From a virus (Duplodnaviria > Caudoviricetes): 64,000 nucleotides of DNA. How positions within the stretch are numbered: the stretch's first letter is position 1; every line of letters starts with the position of its first letter. The stretch is from positions 64,001-128,000 of the IMG/VR virus record IMGVR_UViG_3300021399_000106; one strand, written 5' to 3'. A program made the position numbers and the translations under genes. Of the stretch, positions 1,319-43,235 are shown one piece after another. Below the pieces are notes generated by a model, which saw nothing but the letters and a program-made list of their open reading frames with translations, did no database searches and was not told the origin of the DNA.

Positions 1319-4003
1319 ATGGAAAGATTAGAATCTTTATGAGGCGAAGAAATTGAAGAAGAAATTCCTAAGAGAAAGGAAAAAACTAAAAAAACATTAG
1401 ATAAAATAGCTAAGCCTAAGAAAATAACAGATACTAAAGAAGCAGTATCCAAAACCATTAAAAGCAAAACTATCTCGTTAAAGGAAAAGCTTGAACTTAT
1501 AACAACAGAAGTATTACGAGTATTAGGAAAACAGAAGGATAACATAGTTGTTATAAAGAGTAAGGAACAATATATAGAATATATTCAAAACGCTATTAAA
1601 CGTGGAAAAATAGCGGTAGATACGGAAACTAATAACTCATTGGACCCTATTACTTGTATGTTAATGGGTTTATGTTTATATTATCCAGGTGCTAAACAAG
1701 CATATATACCAGTTAATCATAGAAATTGGGAAACTAAAGAAAGATTAGATTGACAATTAACAGAAGCTGATATACGAGAAGGATTACAATTATTAATAGA
1801 CTCTAATATTGAAGAAGAATATCATAATGGTAAATTTGATAGAGAAGTATTACTATGTACTTGTAATATTGAAATGCCAGTTACAAAAGATACAATGATT
1901 GGAGCAAAATTAATTGATGAAAATGAATATAGTGCCGGATTAAAACAGCAATATATTAGTAAAATTGATCCAGACCAAGAAAAGTATTCTATTGACCACT
2001 TATTTGAAGGTGTAGAATATGCAGATGTAGATCCTGAAATATTTGCTTTATATGCTGCAACAGATTCATTAATGACCGATAAATTAGATAATTGGCAAGA
2101 AGTTATTTTAGAAAGTGACGATTATCAAAGAGTTAACAATCTATATAATGAAACAGAAATTCCATTAATACCTGCTCTTGCTGAAATGGAATTGAACGGA
2201 ATGCTTGTAGATAAGGAATATGCTGCTAGATTAAGTAAGAAATTTCATAATAAGCTAGATAATATTGATAATAATATAAATAATTTACTTACTTCTTTAC
2301 AAGGATTTATCGATGAATGGAAGTTAACACCAAATGCTTTAAATAAACAGATGAAAAAACAATCTGAAAAACAAAGAGCAAATGCAGTTAAAAGTACCAA
2401 TTATGATGATTCACTATGGAAGTATGAAAATGGTGTATGGTATAAGTTAAGTAAGGCAAAAATAGAGCAGCTTGATGAAACATTAACTCCAGAAAGTTTA
2501 GCATCACCAACACAATTAGCAATATTATTATATGATATATTAAAAGCGCCCATTGTTAATGAAGAAAAACCACAGGCAACTGGTGAAGAAGAGCTGAAAG
2601 CTATTGCGGATTCAGCTAAGAAATCAGGTAATTCTGCTCTTGAATCACTATGTGAATTAATGCTTGAAAGACGTGAAGTTGTTAAACTTATATCTACATA
2701 TATTGATACTATTCCAGAAATTGCAAAGAGATGGCCTGATGGTAGAGCTAGAACTCACTTTAATCAATACGGTGCTGCAACGGGTAGATTAAGTTCATCA
2801 GATCCAATTAATTTCCAAAACATTCCTTCTCACGAAAAATCTATTAGATTATTATTTAGAGCAGCTCCAGGTTATCGTATAATTGGTGCTGACTTCTCAG
2901 CCCAAGAACCAAGGCTTGTTGCTCACTATAGTCAAGATGATAATATGTTAAATGCATATTTAAATAAACAAGACTTATATTCAGTTATTGCGTCTCAATC
3001 ATTCAATGTTCCTTATGAAGATTGTTTGGAATTCTATCCAGAAGGAACTGAAATTCTATTTGAAGGTAAAAAAGTAGTATGTGGATATAAAACACATTTA
3101 AATACAGAGGGTAAAGCTAGAAGAACACAAGCAAAATCAATATTACTTGGCTTGCTTTATGGTAGAGGTGCTGCATCAATCGGAGAGCAATTAGGAAAAA
3201 GTAGAGAAGAAGCACAGGAAATTATTGATAAATTCTTTAAAGCCTTTCCTAAAGTTAAAAAGTGGATTGACGAAACTGTTGAATTCTGTAGAAAAAATGG
3301 TTATGTTGAGGATGTAGGTGGTAGACGTAGAAGATTACCTGATATTCAATTACCCCAATATACTATTAGATATATAAATAAAACTATGGCAAATGGTGAT
3401 TTTAATCCATTTATTGGTTGCGAAGATAGATTAACATCAAATAAATTATTTAAAGAGTATGAAGATAAATTATCTAAGATAAAATCAAGAAAACAATATG
3501 AAGCAATTAAATCAGAGGCTTTAGATAATGGTATTGAAATTATTAATAATGGCGGATTTATTAGTCAGGCTGAGAGACAGTGTGTTAATGCAAGAGTGCA
3601 AGGTGGTGCAGCTACATTAACAAAATCAGCATTAATAATGATTTATAATGATAAGAGATTAAAAGATTTAGGTGCAAAATTAATTAATTGTGTTCATGAT
3701 GAAATCTTAATTGAGGCACCAGTTGAAAATTCAGAATTAGCTGCTCAATATTTATGTGAGGATATGATTGACTCAGCTAAAAAGTATGTTCCAGTTGTTC
3801 CAATGAGCGTTGATGCTTATAATGTTGATGCTTGGTATATGGATGAGTATGCATCTATAATTCAAAAAGACTATAAAAAACTATTAGAAAAAGGTGTTAC
3901 GGAAAAGGATGCAGAGAATACTATAATTGAAAAATATTGTGAGTTATTACCTGAGCAGGTTAAGGAAGCAATTCATACTGGGGAAATGCATATCAATTAT
4001 TAG
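1319..4003 (+). CDS. polA: DNA polymerase family A with 3'-5' exonuclease domain (894 aa)
   Basis: AAGGAG RBS, ATG 1319, TGA at 1340 and 1751. AVDTET (ExoI), ATGRLSS..NFQNIP, ADFSAQEPR (motif A), RTQAKSILLGLLYG (motif B), VHDE (motif C). Confidence 0.95.
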
Positions 4004-7675: not shown

Positions 7676-8197
7676 ATGTATACTATTGAAACTAATATAG
7701 AATTACCTATTGCACACTGTTTATATAGAGGTGCATATAGTGGTTTATGCTGTGGTAATGTTTATAGAGATTTAAAAAATGATGGTGAAAAGGAAAGATA
7801 TGATTTAGGAGATTGTATATTTCCTATAATCCACGGTCATAATTATTTTGTAACTGTAGCATTAACAACAAATGAGCTAGATAAAAATGGAATGGTTGTA
7901 GATTTTAAGAAAATGAAGAAAATTATTCATGATTATTTTGACCAATATGACCATAGTATGATTCTAACACCTGATAATCCATTAACTCAAGCATATATTG
8001 AAAATTTTAAACAAAATGGTATTGATTTAAATAGAAGTAGATTATTTATTTGGAATGAAAATCCAACAGCCGAATATATGGCAAAATTATGGTATGATAT
8101 TATGTTAGAAAAATTTAAATCTGAAGGATTAAATGTAAATTCTTTGGCAATAACAGTTGAAGAAACATCACATAATAAAGTAACTTATACAGAATAG
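7676..8197 (+). CDS. queD: 6-carboxy-tetrahydropterin synthase
   Basis: AHCL...C, IHGHNY, GMVVDF, DH, NPTAE and ET motifs. Confidence 0.9.
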   Translation: MYTIETNIELPIAHCLYRGAYSGLCCGNVYRDLKNDGEKERYDLGDCIFPIIHGHNYFVTVALTTNELDKNGMVVDFKKMKKIIHDYFDQYDHSMILTPDNPLTQAYIENFKQNGIDLNRSRLFIWNENPTAEYMAKLWYDIMLEKFKSEGLNVNSLAITVEETSHNKVTYTE

Positions 8198-9745: not shown

Positions 9746-10522
9746 ATGATAAGAGTAAATGAAAATGGTGAAAATCAAATAGGACTTGTAAATATCTTTC
9801 CTTCTATTAATGGAGAAGGTCACGCATCTGGTAAACCAACGGTATTTATTAGAGTGTTTGGTTGTAATTTACGTTGCGTTTGGTGTGACACAAAAGAAAG
9901 TTGGACTGAAGATAATTTATTAAAGGTATATCCTGAAAGATTAAATAATGTTTTAAAATGGAAAACTGCTAAAGAAATATTTAATGAAGTAGAATCATTA
10001 GAACAAAATTGGTATCATAAATCTATTTGTTTAACAGGTGGTGAACCTTTACATTTAGCCAATACTGATTTTATGTTAAATGAATTATTACCATTATTTG
10101 TAAATGCAAATTATGATGTAAGTATTGAAACTGATGGTGGAATTGATTATAAACCTTATAAGGAAAAATTTGGTGATTCTAAGGTAATTAATGGTAATGG
10201 AGATAGAGTAGGTGTAACTATTATTGCTGATTATAAGTTACCTTCTTCAGGAATGACTAAAATGATGATTAAGGATAATTTTAAAATATATTCTGAAATG
10301 GATTTAATAAAAATGGTTATATCTGATAATGAAGAAGATTGGAAGGAATTAGAAAATGTTGTTAATTCCGGAACTAAAGCAAGTATTTATTTAAGTCCTT
10401 GTTTTGGACAAGTTACAATGAACAGAATTCCTGAATTTGTAATGAAACATTCTGATAAACCTATCAGAGCACAAATTCAAGTACATAAAATATTTTGGGA
10501 GCCAACAAAAAAGGACGTGTAA
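9746..10522 (+). CDS. queE: 7-carboxy-7-deazaguanine synthase (radical SAM)
   Basis: IFPSINGEG, VFIRVFGCNLRCVWCDT, LTGGEP, SIETDG, QIQVHK. Confidence 0.93.
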   Translation: MIRVNENGENQIGLVNIFPSINGEGHASGKPTVFIRVFGCNLRCVWCDTKESWTEDNLLKVYPERLNNVLKWKTAKEIFNEVESLEQNWYHKSICLTGGEPLHLANTDFMLNELLPLFVNANYDVSIETDGGIDYKPYKEKFGDSKVINGNGDRVGVTIIADYKLPSSGMTKMMIKDNFKIYSEMDLIKMVISDNEEDWKELENVVNSGTKASIYLSPCFGQVTMNRIPEFVMKHSDKPIRAQIQVHKIFWEPTKKDV

Positions 10523-10526
10523 AAAT

Positions 10527-11009
10527 ATGATTAATTTAAATGGAGTAAGAGGCAGTGGTAAAACTGTAAATTTAGTAAAGTTAGCTAATAATAATTATGA
10601 ATTAGGACATCTATCTGTAATTATTACAATATGACCACATATGAGATTTATTTATAAAAATGCTGGTTTAAATGAAAATATACCAGTTATCACATTAAGA
10701 CAATATTTAGAGGATCCTAAGGCATTTGATAGCTATGATATTTTTATAGATGAACTTGAATATGTTTTAAGTACTAATTTATTTATCCACGGTAATTTGA
10801 GAGCATTTACTACCGAAAAGGAAAATGTAAAAGAACTTAAGAGAGAAGATTGGGATAAAAATTATCGTTTAAATTCTCTTATAGAAACTACTATTAACGA
10901 ATTTAAGAAAACATTTGGTTATAAGTATGAAGAAATACTTAATACAATATCAAAAGAAGATATTATAAAAGGTGTAGAAAAAATATTAAAGGAGATTCAA
11001 AATGATTAA
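10527..11009 (+). CDS. Small P-loop protein
   Basis: ATG 10527, GVRGSGKT, IFIDE; TGA at 10632. Confidence 0.6.
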
Positions 11010-11391
11010 AGTATTTATTAGTGTACCAATGAAAAATAGAAAAAAGGAAGATATTGAATATTCAATTCGTAAGATGAAAAGAATTGCTAGATCATATTTA
11101 GCAGAAAATGATATTGAAGCAGATAATATTGACTTTATTAATACTATTGTTTCAGAAAATCCTCCTAAAGAGGTGAATGAAAAAATTTGGTATTTAGGAG
11201 CAGCAATTCAATTATTAGCTAAGGCAGATTATTTAGTAACTATAAATTATGAAGATAGTTATGGTTATTCTGGATGTGAAATTGAAAGACACGCCTTTTA
11301 TGCTTATAAAGGAGAAGATAACATAATACAAATACCATTAGCTTATATTTTATCAGACAATGAAAAATTAAATTACAACACGGAAAAGTAA
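11002..11391 (+). CDS. Nucleoside 2-deoxyribosyltransferase-like (DUF4406-type) protein
   Basis: KVFISVPM..., LLAKAD, SGCEIE pattern. Confidence 0.6.
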   Translation: MIKVFISVPMKNRKKEDIEYSIRKMKRIARSYLAENDIEADNIDFINTIVSENPPKEVNEKIWYLGAAIQLLAKADYLVTINYEDSYGYSGCEIERHAFYAYKGEDNIIQIPLAYILSDNEKLNYNTEK

Positions 11392-11416: not shown

Positions 11417-11809
11417 ATGCCTTATGATAAAGATATTATAGCCAGATATGAATATCAAGCTTTAGGAAGAGTTATTGCAGTTGACTTTGATAGTACAATA
11501 ACACAACATAGGCCCTATCCTCAAAAAGCACCTTTAAATGAGAAAGCTAAAAAATATCTGGATAAACTAAATGAAAAAGGATTCAGAATTGTTTTATGGA
11601 CGTCTAGATTAGAAGATGATTTAGAAGAAGCTTATGATAGATGTATAAATGAATTTGGATTATCATATTTAATTAAAGATAATTCAGATCTTATTCACGG
11701 TGCAACAGGTAAACTTGTAGCATCATTCTATATTGATGATAACTCTTATGTAAATAAAAAAGTACCGTGGAGAAAGATATATAAATACTTATTAAAAAAA
11801 TACAAATAA
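11417..11809 (+). CDS. HAD-superfamily phosphatase
   Basis: IAVDFDST, LWTSR, K, YIDD motifs. Confidence 0.8.
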   Translation: MPYDKDIIARYEYQALGRVIAVDFDSTITQHRPYPQKAPLNEKAKKYLDKLNEKGFRIVLWTSRLEDDLEEAYDRCINEFGLSYLIKDNSDLIHGATGKLVASFYIDDNSYVNKKVPWRKIYKYLLKKYK

Positions 11810-11825
11810 TTGTATAATATATATA

Positions 11826-11873
11826 ACGCAGTTCGAACTCAAAATCCTGCGTAATAAATTAAAACTAAAGGAG
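11826..11873 (+). ncRNA. Putative preQ1-I riboswitch overlapping the queF RBS
   Basis: Stem ACGCAG/CTGCGT; loop begins TTCG and ends in C; A-rich tail ends AAAACTAA and runs into AAGGAG; begins just after the TTGTATAAT promoter motif at 11810; directly upstream of queF. Confidence 0.78.
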
Positions 11874-11879
11874 ATAAAA

Positions 11880-12797
11880 ATGGCAAAAAAATTGAGTGAA
11901 GAAAAATTAAATGTAACAGAAACATTGGCTGCTACGCATCTAGGTAAGAAATCAGCTGGTAGTGAAAAGTATGATAAAAGCTTACTTGTAGCTGTTCCTA
12001 GAATTGAAAACAGAACCGCTTATGGTATTGAAGAAAGTAATTTACCATTTGTAGGTTATGATGTTTGGGATGCTTATGAAGTATCATTTATGACTACTAA
12101 TAACGTTCCTTGTATGTATGTTTTAAAAATTAAATATCCTTGTAATAGTCCTTATATTGTAGAATCTAAGTCATTAAAATTATATTTAAATTCTTTCAAT
12201 ATGACACCTTTAAAGGATACTATTGAAGAAAGTACACAATACTTTTTAGATACTGTTAAAAAGGATTTAGAAGAGCTTTTAAAAACAACAGTTGAATTAC
12301 ACTTACATACAGAATATTCTAAATCAAAATGTAAAATGTTTAAAGGTTATACTAATTTAAAGAAATTAGTAAATATGAATGAATTACATTGCGAAAAGTT
12401 TAATGAAGCACCGGAACTATTAAGCTTTGATAGCTCTAATGCAAACAAGGAATTAAAAATTACTTTTGATTCAATGAGATCAAATTGTAGAGTAACACAT
12501 CAACCTGACTTCGCAGATGCATTTATTAGAATTAAATGCAAAGATGGTGTTGATTTAACTAATCTAACTAAATATTTAATTTCATTTAGAAAAGAGTGGC
12601 ATTTCCATGAAGAATGTGTTGAAATGATTTATAAGAGATTATTAGATAAATATAATCCAGAAATTCTTATGGTAGGTGCTTTATATACAAGACGTGGTGG
12701 AATTGATATTTGCCCTATGAGAGCATTAAATAGTGATTTATTAGATAAAGAATTAATTTCAATTAATAAATATACTAAGAAAACTATTAAACAATAA
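11880..12797 (+). CDS. queF: preQ0 reductase, bimodular YqcD-type QueF
   Basis: DVWDAYEVS, IVESKSLKLYLNS, RSNCRVTHQPD, FHEECVE, YTRRGGIDI. Confidence 0.93.
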   Translation: MAKKLSEEKLNVTETLAATHLGKKSAGSEKYDKSLLVAVPRIENRTAYGIEESNLPFVGYDVWDAYEVSFMTTNNVPCMYVLKIKYPCNSPYIVESKSLKLYLNSFNMTPLKDTIEESTQYFLDTVKKDLEELLKTTVELHLHTEYSKSKCKMFKGYTNLKKLVNMNELHCEKFNEAPELLSFDSSNANKELKITFDSMRSNCRVTHQPDFADAFIRIKCKDGVDLTNLTKYLISFRKEWHFHEECVEMIYKRLLDKYNPEILMVGALYTRRGGIDICPMRALNSDLLDKELISINKYTKKTIKQ

Positions 12798-12812
12798 GGA
12801 GGATATTTGATT

Positions 12813-13637
12813 ATGAAATGTATTGTTAGTTTAAGTGGTGGTAGAGATAGCGCCACATGTTTAGGTCTTGCCGTAGAAAGATATGGTTCAGAAAATGTTT
12901 ACGCTGTAGGATTTGAATATGGAAGTAAACATCCTCAAGAATTAGATAGAGCACAACAAATTGCAGATTATTATGGTGTAGATTTCCAAGTTATTCAAAT
13001 CTTACCTGAAATCTTTAAAGGCTCTACATGTACAATGTTAAAAGGCTCTAAGGAAGAAGTGCAAAAAGGTAAAACTTATACAGAAATTCAAGCTGAAAAG
13101 GGAGGTAAAGTAGATACTTATGTTCCTTTTAGAAATGGATTATTTTCAGCATTTGTTGCAGCAAGAGCTGAAAGTCTAGTTCAACAATTTGATGAAGATG
13201 TTGTTATTATGCTTGGGCAACATGCAGATGATAGTGGATACTACATTGATGAAAATGGAGAAGAGCATTTAGATGATTCTAAGGCTGCTTATCCAGATTG
13301 TTCTGTTAATTTTGTAAGAGCATTTGAAAAAGTAGTAGCTATAAGTTCTGTAGGTAGAGTTCATTATGAAGCTCCATTTGTAAAGAACCATAAATGGGAA
13401 TTAATTAAAACAGGATTAGAGTTAGCAAAGCCTGTTCCTTATGAATTATGTTTAAGCTGTTATGACCCTATTGAAGAAAATGGCGAAGTTAAAGAATGTA
13501 TGCAATGTGCTACATGTTTAGATGTTATTGATAACACAAGAAAAGCATTAGAAGCTATTAAGAATTCTAATCCAGAATTGTATAATAATTTAATAAAAAA
13601 AGATTATTATAAAAAGTATTTAAAAGAGGTAGCTTAA
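12813..13637 (+). CDS. queC: 7-cyano-7-deazaguanine synthase
   Basis: SLSGGRDS, YG..H..E, YVPFRN, YPDC, SCY..CMQCATC. The alternative TTG start is 12807. Confidence 0.95.
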   Translation: MKCIVSLSGGRDSATCLGLAVERYGSENVYAVGFEYGSKHPQELDRAQQIADYYGVDFQVIQILPEIFKGSTCTMLKGSKEEVQKGKTYTEIQAEKGGKVDTYVPFRNGLFSAFVAARAESLVQQFDEDVVIMLGQHADDSGYYIDENGEEHLDDSKAAYPDCSVNFVRAFEKVVAISSVGRVHYEAPFVKNHKWELIKTGLELAKPVPYELCLSCYDPIEENGEVKECMQCATCLDVIDNTRKALEAIKNSNPELYNNLIKKDYYKKYLKEVA

Positions 13638-14272
13638 TGAGAGATAGAAAAGATTTATTAAAAAGAGAAGAGCTTGAAAGAATTGCAAGAGAATTTCTTG
13701 AAGCTGTAGATGAAAATCCTGATAGACCTGGATTAATTGAGACTCCTAAAAGAGTTGCAAAATATTGAATGGAATTATTGGAAGGTCAAAAGTATACTAA
13801 TGATGAAATTGCTAGTATGTATGATAAGTGTTTCGATTTAGATGACGATGATGAAACTGATGTAGATCTTTCACAAAATGATACAGGATTAAAGAGAGAT
13901 TTAGTTATTGAAAAAGATATTCCTATTTTCTCACATTGTGAACACCATATTGCTTTAATGTATGATATGAAAGTAACAATTGCATATATTCCAAATAAGA
14001 GAGTTATTGGTTTATCAAAAATGGGAAGAATTGCTGAAATGGTTGGTAAAAGATTACAATTACAAGAAAAAATTGGAGCTGATATCAATTATATCATGAG
14101 AAAAATTTTAGGAACTAATGATGTTGCAGTTGTAATCGAAGGTAAGCACGGATGTATGACTGCAAGAGGTGTAAAGTCTAGAGAAGCTGTTACAAGAACA
14201 GCAAGTCTTGAAGGTGATTTTAAGAAAGATTCAGCTTTAAGAAACGAGCTTTATTCTTTACTAGGAATTTAA
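13637..14272 (+). CDS. folE: GTP cyclohydrolase I
   Basis: TAATG coupling to queC; RPGLIETPKRVAKY(W=TGA 13766), CEHH, GLSK, RLQLQE, HGCMTARG. Confidence 0.95.
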
Positions 14273-14764: not shown

Positions 14765-15834
14765 TGTTACCTGAATTACCTATTGAACAAAGAAATATGG
14801 AAAATCATTTTAGAAATATGCCTCCTCATCCATACTATCTAATAGCTGCAGGACAAGGATTTACAAAAGTAACATTTCCTGATGGAACTGAATCAACAAG
14901 TGATGAGGTTAAGAAAGAATTAGGTTATTGTCAACTATTTGCGTGAAATCTTGAAAAAAGTGCTCTTATGAAATGGGTTGAATACCTTACAGAGCATCCT
15001 GATCATCCTTGTAAACTCGTAGTTGATAGTGGTGCATATTCAATGTGGTCTAGAGGAAAAGAATTTGATATGGATGAATATATTAATTTCTTAAACTCTA
15101 ATAATGTAATTGAAAGAGCATTCTGGGTTGCAGAAGCAGATAAAATTCCAGGAAGTTTTGGTGTAGATCCTACACCAGAGGAAGTAGCAGCGGCTCCTGA
15201 AGAATCTTGGAATAACTATCTATATATGATTAAAAGAGTTAAATATCCAAAAAAGATTGTTCCTATCTTCCACATGGGTGAAGACTTCGAATATTTAAGA
15301 AGAATGCTTACATATCAATTTGAAGATGGCGATTTTATTCCATATATTGGAATTTCTCCAAGAAATGACGTTCATGTTAATTTCAAAACTGTTTGGTATG
15401 ATCAAGTATGGAAGTTTATATTTGAAGAATGTCAAAAATTAGGAAGAGATATTCCTTTAACACATAACTTCGGTATGACAACAATTTCCTTAATGGAGCA
15501 ATATCCAAGTTGTAGTTCTGACTCAACATCTTGGGTAAGATCTGCTTCTTTTGGAAATATAATGATTGTTAATAACGGAAAGATTGAAATTGTTTGCGTT
15601 AGTGATAGACAATTAAACAGTCCAGACCATATTAAAAATAAATCTAGAGCTTTACAAGAAGTTGTAGAAAGAGAATGTCAAAGAATTGGCAGAGGTTTAA
15701 CTCTTAATGATTTAATTTATAATGACCCATCATCATCTTTAAGAAAGTGTTTTAACTTGTATAGTTTACATGAATGGGCAACAAATTATAAATATTGTGG
15801 TACCGATGAATTTAAAGAAGATTTGTGAACTTAA
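14764..15834 (+). CDS. dpdA: DpdA-like DNA-guanine transglycosylase (TGT fold)
   Basis: Joined across TGA 14944 and 15826. VVDSGAYS, VPIFH, HNFG, SSDSTSW; sits in the que cluster. Confidence 0.8.
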
Positions 15835-42441: not shown

Positions 42442-43235
42442 TATTTAGCCACCTTCCATAAATTAGATAAGAAGTTACTCATAAATAATTCTTTATTTAA
42501 TCGCTTATCAACTAACTTTTTTCTAGATTCAATAGTATATAAATAACATTTTAAACTTTTATTATTTTTATTACCTATAAAATCTGAATAATAACAATAA
42601 GTTAAACAATCAAAGAATAAATCTAAATCAAATTTATTATATTCATCCTTATAATTAATTTTATCTGTAATAGTTAAAGTATTTAAATAACTAGCTTTAT
42701 CTATTTTTGTAACAATAGTATTACATAAATTATACAAATCTTGAACATAACTATCTAAATTAGTTTCAATAATTTTTCCAGGACTTCTTACAATGTTTAA
42801 TATTAAATCTTCATTATTACAATTCTTGGTAAATTCCTTTAATTCTTCTTTTGTATATTGTTCTAATTCAAATATAATACATCTATTTAAAATGGTGTTT
42901 AAAACGGTATTTTTATTGTCTACTAATAAAATTAAAAAAGAGGTATTAATTGGTTCTTCAATTAATTTTAACATTGTATTGGATTCTTTTTCAGTGATTC
43001 CTGTGAAATCAATAACATATATTAAAGGATTAGGATTAAGATATATTTGCTTAATAAAATCTGAATTTAAATCTTCAGTTATATCTACTACAGGTAAGTG
43101 TAATATATTATCTTTTATATAATTTACTAAGGTATGCTTTCCCATACCTTTTTCCCCAATTAACATTGTAGATCTAGGAAAGTTATCAATAGTGTATTTA
43201 TTAAGTTGTTGTAATAATTTTCTTTGACCTATCAT
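42441..43235 (-). CDS. holB: Clamp-loader delta-prime subunit-like
   Basis: MIGQ, GEKGMGK, NTMLKLIEEP, TILNRC. Confidence 0.8.
   Translation of the reverse strand: MIGQRKLLQQLNKYTIDNFPRSTMLIGEKGMGKHTLVNYIKDNILHLPVVDITEDLNSDFIKQIYLNPNPLIYVIDFTGITEKESNTMLKLIEEPINTSFLILLVDNKNTVLNTILNRCIIFELEQYTKEELKEFTKNCNNEDLILNIVRSPGKIIETNLDSYVQDLYNLCNTIVTKIDKASYLNTLTITDKINYKDEYNKFDLDLFFDCLTYCYYSDFIGNKNNKSLKCYLYTIESRKKLVDKRLNKELFMSNFLSNLWKVAK

Follow-up and report, generated by a model that had tools for sequence, protein, structure and literature searches.

A candidate class I preQ1-type riboswitch of divergent form in the queF leader of a phage 7-deazaguanine gene cluster

The leader of a phage queF gene carries an RNA element (positions 11826-11873) that we regard, with a probability of roughly three in four, as a divergent class I preQ1-type aptamer through which the product of QueF would feed back on queF expression. 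The assignment draws on features observed here, namely conservation of the element, covariation in its P1 helix, invariant pocket positions, association with particular genes and alternative expression platforms. The sequence analyzed (hereafter, the window) is a 64,000-nt stretch, positions 64,001-128,000, of the 166.5 kb IMG/VR virus record IMGVR_UViG_3300021399_000106, classified in the Caudoviricetes; other sequences are designated by L numbers. An earlier note on this DNA had proposed a preQ1-I riboswitch over the queF ribosome-binding site (RBS). The leader letters and the layout that it quoted (a 6-bp stem, a 15-nt loop, an A-rich tail and the Shine-Dalgarno (SD) sequence) match the window text exactly. 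The stem pattern has a single occurrence in the window and none in 100 shuffles, and no ORF of 40 aa or more overlaps the element on the opposite strand.

Table 1. Parts of the queF leader and genes of the 7-deazaguanine cluster in the window.
Feature	Position	Strand	Evidence or remark
queD-like 6-pyruvoyl-tetrahydropterin synthase	7676-8197	+	PF01242 4e-23; PHROG 2389 1.1e-24
queE-like radical SAM enzyme	9746-10522	+	Pfam Radical_SAM 4.2e-11; PHROG 2076, QueE-like, 2.7e-36
Promoter-like motif TTGTATAAT (-10 type)	11810-11818	+	Read in the sequence; putative promoter function
P1 helix, 5′ arm	11826-11831	+	6 Watson-Crick pairs with 11847-11852
Aptamer loop, 15 nt	11832-11846	+	Opens UUCG, ends AUC
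Loop UU	11832-11833	+
Loop CUC	11838-11840	+	Proposed P2 5′ strand, anti-SD
Loop U	11845	+
Loop C	11846	+	Putative specificity C
P1 helix, 3′ arm	11847-11852	+	Pairs with 11826-11831; covariation
A-rich L3 tail with A-A-A-A-C-U-A-A	11853-11869	+	Conserved A-C-U-A: C11865, U11866, A11867
Shine-Dalgarno GGAG	11870-11873	+	GAG 11871-11873, proposed P2 3′ strand
queF start codon ATG	11880	+	Opens 305-aa ORF
queF, NADPH-dependent preQ0 reductase, two-domain, 305 aa	11880-12797	+	Pfam QueF_N 2.2e-30, QueF 1.9e-23
queC	12807-13637	+	Pfam QueC 1.2e-35; starts 10 nt after queF
folE (GTP cyclohydrolase I)	13769-14272	+	Pfam GTP_cyclohydroI 1.3e-46
DpdA-like transglycosylase (TGT relative)	14968-15828	+	PHROG 887, queuine tRNA-ribosyltransferase, 2.3e-44

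The window brings together the genes of the preQ0 pathway (queD, queE, queC and folE), queF and the gene for a DpdA-type transglycosylase (Table 1). The last of these was detected only with PHROGs, Pfam TGT giving no match in the phage genome. Phage clusters of folE, queD, queE and queC, with or without queF, plus DpdA have reportedly been described by Hutinet et al. in 2019, Streptococcus phage Dp-1 being an example, and the gene set of these DNA-modification clusters is the same as that of the window. Judged by its gene content, the window phage probably puts a 7-deazaguanine, likely preQ1, into its own DNA. A literature search found no published regulator of phage 7-deazaguanine clusters, and nothing that joins a riboswitch, DpdA and a phage. 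No terminator was called on the + strand between 9000 and 17200. Direct control would fall on queF translation, and any influence on queC would be exerted via coupling only. Between queE and the leader element lie two small ORFs (11002-11391 and 11417-11809) with weak matches, one to a nucleoside 2-deoxyribosyltransferase (PHROG 355, 2e-4), the other to a HAD-type or phosphoheptose-isomerase-like family (PHROG 1238, 8e-19). Both might serve the modification cluster as accessory genes for nucleotide handling.

The window has 10 occurrences of the motif TTGTATAAT, 4.2 being expected (2 of 100 shuffles reach 10), and the motif is probably a recurrent phage promoter. Eight sites are on the + strand (344, 1283, 5591, 7642, 11810, 13578, 22679 and 40398), including one just upstream of queD and another upstream of folE; the sites at 42729 and 47421 are on the - strand. 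A TGTATAAT motif upstream of the element is also present in the relatives L006, L008, L009 and L406. At the other end of the leader, the ATG lying under the element adds 9 residues (11880-11906) to QueF in comparison with its homologues, which are mostly 296 aa long and start 9 residues after the window ATG. In L006 (1704-1753), whose QueF is 92% identical, the corresponding ATG opens a 15-codon leader ORF; queF there starts separately, overlapping the end of this ORF as TAATG and with a GGAGG of its own. One of the two forms is therefore a fusion or a split of the other.

Because the folding energy of the leader is unremarkable (single-sequence MFE -7.5 kcal/mol, z = -0.06, no better than shuffles), the case for the element was built on relatives and not on thermodynamics. 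Close QueF homologues share 65-92% identity and many reside on contigs of 60-196 kb; a QueF protein search of IMG/VR returned no relatives, nor did an exact 23-nt motif scan. In L006, L008, L009, L406, L451, L407 and L454 the element is found upstream of queF, with stems that differ in sequence yet are complementary and a loop that is nearly unchanged. These copies, located by protein similarity and not by motif, carry no loop-pattern bias, and they display the same conserved positions. Phage copies precede queF, queC or a Vut_1 transporter gene, and a cluster can hold up to four of them. Thus, four copies are found inside 4 kb in L454 (2762-2814, 2942-3001, 3899-3956 and 6656-6713), tandem pairs in L407 (2255-2309, 2362-2422) and L275 (6322-6384, 6494-6541, - strand), and in L410 one copy upstream of the Vut_1 transporter gene and one upstream of queC (439-499, 3415-3472). 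The window phage genome has one copy only, scoring 57.5 bits with the covariance model built here.

Further copies were found through the motif. An initial 14-base loop pattern was swamped by chance matches in viral and genome collections and was usable only after stem filtering. A metagenome scan with a pattern that constrained the loop, the closing pair and some of the tail but nothing else yielded 118 usable matches, whose flanking stems are bimodal (1-3 pairs in 26 matches, 6-7 pairs in 92) and include 17 distinct stems. A relaxed-loop scan of viral sequences gave no further true variants, and BLAST of the motif against GenBank phages gave chance matches only, inside Porphyromonas phage genes. 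Altogether, some 90 distinct copies are at hand from gut and rumen metagenomes, bacterial MAGs (for example L179, a Ruminococcaceae bin) and related phage contigs of 60-200 kb. A model search of 151 genomes from the family of one bacterial carrier identified two strong and two weak (canonical-type) matches, indicating that the element is sporadic in that family.

A covariance model made from 56 copies was used to collect a set of 64. Across this set, mostly pattern-derived and aligned by fitting to the model, 97.7% of the P1 cells are paired and 6 of the 7 pairs undergo double changes. None of 500 shuffles did as well, and slid controls had 44-59% of cells paired. The loop starts with UUC and ends with AUC in all of 63 copies, an invariance that is partly by construction since the search pattern fixed the loop; 61 of these loops measure 15 nt and the other 2 measure 16 nt. 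The tail is A-rich throughout and reads AAAC followed by C or U in 60 of the 63. A GAG follows the tail in all copies but one (62/63), including terminator-type copies where it is no ribosome-binding site. An apparent covariation of loop position 5 with the tail pyrimidine, good in 7 sequences, was lost in the larger set and was discarded, and no correlation between P1 length and L3 length was supported. Upstream of queF in related phages, where the earlier note had suggested looking for stem covariation, the stems are complementary but differ in sequence. The relatives also keep the C before the 3′ stem arm and the A-A-A-A-C-U-A-A tail to which it had drawn attention, as well as the complementarity of the loop CUC to the GAG of the SD.

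Both strands of the proposed P2, the loop CUC and the tail GAG, are nearly invariant across copies. Two variant copies depart from this rule: in L407 copy 1, CUCU and GGAG give way to a loop UCUU and a tail AAGA, and in L454 copy 4 to a loop CCUU and a tail AAGG. Such paired change, although amounting to few events in two variant copies, supports the predicted P2, which in the window would comprise 3 bp only. L454 copy 4 lies upstream of a GIY-YIG gene and has a loop between the canonical type I and the variant.

The element is attached to two expression platforms. In the window and in L006, the tail runs into the SD and the ATG. In L008, L009, L406, L407 copy 1, L275 copy 1 and L454 copy 1, a strong hairpin and a U-run, forming an intrinsic terminator, come after the aptamer, which retains its GAG; the five terminator-type copies tested have folding z-scores of -2.1 to -4.2. 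In some of the tandem pairs, a terminator-type copy comes first and an SD-type copy second. Where a terminator is present, 5-7 bases of the loop are complementary to its 5′ arm, which suggests an antiterminator competing with P2. Since this complementarity is only modestly above that of shuffled loops (per-case fractions 0.02-0.47; Fisher combination about 0.03), we treat the antiterminator as a prediction.

At gathering score, Rfam 15 (4227 families) gave no match in the whole window, and the other preQ1 families (preQ1-II and preQ1-III, assumed to be among the 4227) gave none at the site. A permissive Rfam search of 251 nt around the site returned chance-level matches only (freshwater-2 at 15.4 bits and two others), without PreQ1 among them. 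The first check that the earlier note named, a covariance-model match to RF00522, fails: none was found at the queF leader even under permissive conditions (E up to 10) in either the 251 nt or the whole 166.5-kb record; the latter has five chance sites elsewhere, at 9-14 bits, the gathering score being 39 bits. The bacterial copies L179 and L226 likewise give no match with RF00522. The best-scoring variant copy, the short-tailed L454 copy 1, reaches 22.9 bits, below gathering, and aligns to RF00522 with the same stem, loop ends and tail and a 3-nt insertion in the loop.

Reviews recognise three types of class I preQ1 riboswitch (PMC11625349); a literature search found no fourth preQ1 class named. 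In type I, UU comes after the P1 5′ arm, UC precedes the 3′ arm and the tail has a conserved C with UA behind it (PMC11625349, PMC8752633); these hallmark residues form two stacked preQ1 sites (PMC8752633, PMC11625349). All are present in the window, as U11832 and U11833, U11845 and C11846, and C11865, U11866 and A11867. The UU, U11845 and C11846 are equivalent to U6, U7, U16 and C17 of type I, and the tail to A30, C31 and U32. As read from a canonical sub-threshold match (L415, 29.8 bits), RF00522 has in its consensus a stem of 5 bp and a loop of 12 nt, with UUCG at its start and UC at its end; the tail is a run of As leading to C-U-A-A-G-G-A. Thus, type I (RF00522; Carnobacterium antarcticum structure, PMC8752633) and the variant have in common a small hairpin with an A-rich tail, a closing G-C pair, the UU(C) and UC of the loop, a tail A-C-U-A leading into the SD, and association with queuosine-precursor genes; the H-type pseudoknot of type I is proposed here for the variant. 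In contrast, the variant loop measures 15-16 nt against 12 and has a conserved core of its own (CUC and an A-run), P1 has 6-7 bp against 5, L3 about 9-14 nt against about 7, and P2 would pair 3-4 bases of GGAG against 2. With loop, stem and tail consistently longer than in the catalogued family, the RNA is a divergent variant and not a textbook preQ1-I; the extra length of loop and tail, entered as a caveat in the earlier note, extends to the stem and is consistent across copies.

Some features point towards type III, represented by the E. coli yhhQ leader (PDB 8fza, PMC10622847): an A-rich tail of variable length, yhhQ-type transporter genes and a loop pyrimidine stretch that buries most of the SD by Watson-Crick pairing (predicted for the variant). 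However, type III has a short pyrimidine-rich loop with AC before the 3′ arm (PMC10622847, PMC11625349), whereas the variant has a 15-nt loop and UC, and type III membership was rejected as the poorer match. Type III is also almost confined to gamma-proteobacteria (PMC10622847). Taken at the level of sequence, the RNA is real, conserved and riboswitch-like, an offshoot homologous to class I, nearest to type I and absent from the catalogue. Of the class I identity originally proposed, what holds is a conserved RNA of the class I lineage over the queF RBS in a DpdA-containing cluster; what does not hold is the textbook form, the RNA being divergent and without an RF00522 match.

Other hairpins with A-rich tails were encountered in phages. 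The leader of the Dp-1 que operon (L450, NC_015274, 75-129) has a motif different from that of the window, in common with a Vut_1 leader in L408 (1586-1640). The loop of this motif begins with UUUUGUAA and finishes with CCUGACA and two further bases, the stems are compensatory and there is no Rfam match; this motif may be a second phage-borne preQ1-like variant. In L453, a 152-kb phage contig, a hairpin at 1470-1527, upstream of a Vut_1-SDR-queF operon, has a 9-nt pyrimidine-rich loop ending AC and a long A-rich tail running into GGAG. This hairpin looks like class I types II and III and not like the variant, and it matches neither the variant covariance model nor Rfam. Phage riboswitches are rare, examples being the glutamine riboswitches of Melnitz and related marine myophages (PMC9004378). 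Like the variant, these are metabolite-type, phage-borne and proposed to control phage genes; they differ in ligand class, fold and genes, and they match a catalogued family whereas the variant does not.

The gene directly after the pattern-derived copies encodes a Vut_1/YhhQ-type queuosine-precursor transporter in 75 of 81 cases and QueT in 2. Comprising YhhQ and QueT transporters, queF and queC, the downstream genes are the regulon expected of a preQ1-type riboswitch. They also temper the uniqueness that had been claimed for the phage riboswitch: the variant is common upstream of transporter genes in bacteria, and many related phages have it as well. In L275 (4792-6314), L035 (4048-5503), L410 (503-1973) and L453 (1527-2991), the Vut_1/YhhQ gene is followed by one for a short-chain dehydrogenase (SDR), and Vut_1/YhhQ fusions occur in L330 (3900-5537), L320 (5667-7130) and L341 (1652-3781). 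The partner or fused domain is an SDR or, in some contigs, an amidase, in both bacteria and phages. This association may reflect an undescribed step of 7-deazaguanine salvage.

In the mechanism that we infer, which extends to the ligand, the OFF direction and the geometry of the pseudoknot, the aptamer would adopt an H-type fold made of P1 (6 bp), the 15-nt loop, the A-rich L3 and P2 (CUC 11838-11840 with GAG 11871-11873). Accumulated 7-deazaguanine, most likely the QueF product preQ1 and possibly preQ0 too, would bind between P1 and P2, contacted by C11846 and the flanking Us; C11865 would perhaps contribute to a second site, as in type I. Binding would dock the tail and bury the RBS, lowering queF translation, the outcome being product feedback on the phage's supply of base for DNA modification. 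From its sequence, the queF leader is most likely a translational OFF switch responsive to preQ1 or preQ0. A counterpoint is that repression of queF might seem ill suited to a phage with a high demand for preQ1.

An RNA of the same riboswitch lineage could instead sense another 7-deazapurine, be it preQ0, queuine or some other salvage intermediate, with the enlarged loop reshaping the pocket. We consider this unlikely, though worth keeping in mind. It would suit the consistent distinctness of the variant from catalogued preQ1-I, both in loop length and in the want of an RF00522 match at the site. Bacterial copies occur almost only before YhhQ-type importers, often paired with or fused to an SDR or an amidase, a hint at another salvage route; the L410 copy precedes queC, a preQ0-synthesis gene; and YhhQ is reported to prefer preQ0 (PMC10622847). 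Set against this, all the residues with which type I reads preQ1 are retained, and the gene controlled in the window is one that makes preQ1. Moreover, class I aptamers bind both preQ1 and preQ0, which counts against a change of ligand.

Far less credible is that hairpin and tail, sensing no metabolite, bind a protein or act generically as a leader or in processing; the 10-nt DNA palindrome at 11830-11839 could be the binding site of a dimer. The palindrome is not kept, the loops of relatives reading GGCC or GAUC at this place, and the element is found in unrelated bacterial and phage contigs with no common neighbouring regulator. Its conserved unpaired residues match a known ligand pocket, and the existence of two expression platforms equally argues against a protein site. 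Finally, a hairpin arisen by chance in AT-rich intergenic DNA, which the folding energy and a stem of only 6 bp might evoke, is contradicted by the many homologous copies with covarying stems, and a terminator of the upstream gene by the lack of a U-run after the stem and of any terminator call there, so that we attach practically no weight to either.

Returning to the divergent preQ1-type aptamer, we lean towards a broader proposal: that the variant is a fourth, so far undescribed subtype of class I, with a loop of 15-16 nt, P1 and L3 lengthened and an anti-SD pairing of 3-4 bp, widespread before YhhQ-type importers in gut and rumen bacteria, and one which a clade of 60-200 kb phages would have recruited (1-4 copies per genome, both platforms) for feedback control of the synthesis and import of the base installed in their DNA. 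If true, a viral genome-modification pathway would for the first time be known to lie under riboswitch control. 7-Deazaguanine hypermodification of DNA is an anti-restriction strategy of phages. A metabolite-sensing RNA before queF, queC and the importer gene would mean that phages meter the modified base and do not overproduce it, and the queF leader would offer an experimental handle, by means of reporters and point mutants, on the supply of modification during infection. As for the riboswitches themselves, current Rfam models miss a variant that is common in gut and rumen. The variant would extend the smallest known aptamer family, with the residues of the type I two-ligand pocket kept, the loop enlarged and more of the SD buried, and would be a natural test case for the co-evolution of pocket, stoichiometry and expression platform.
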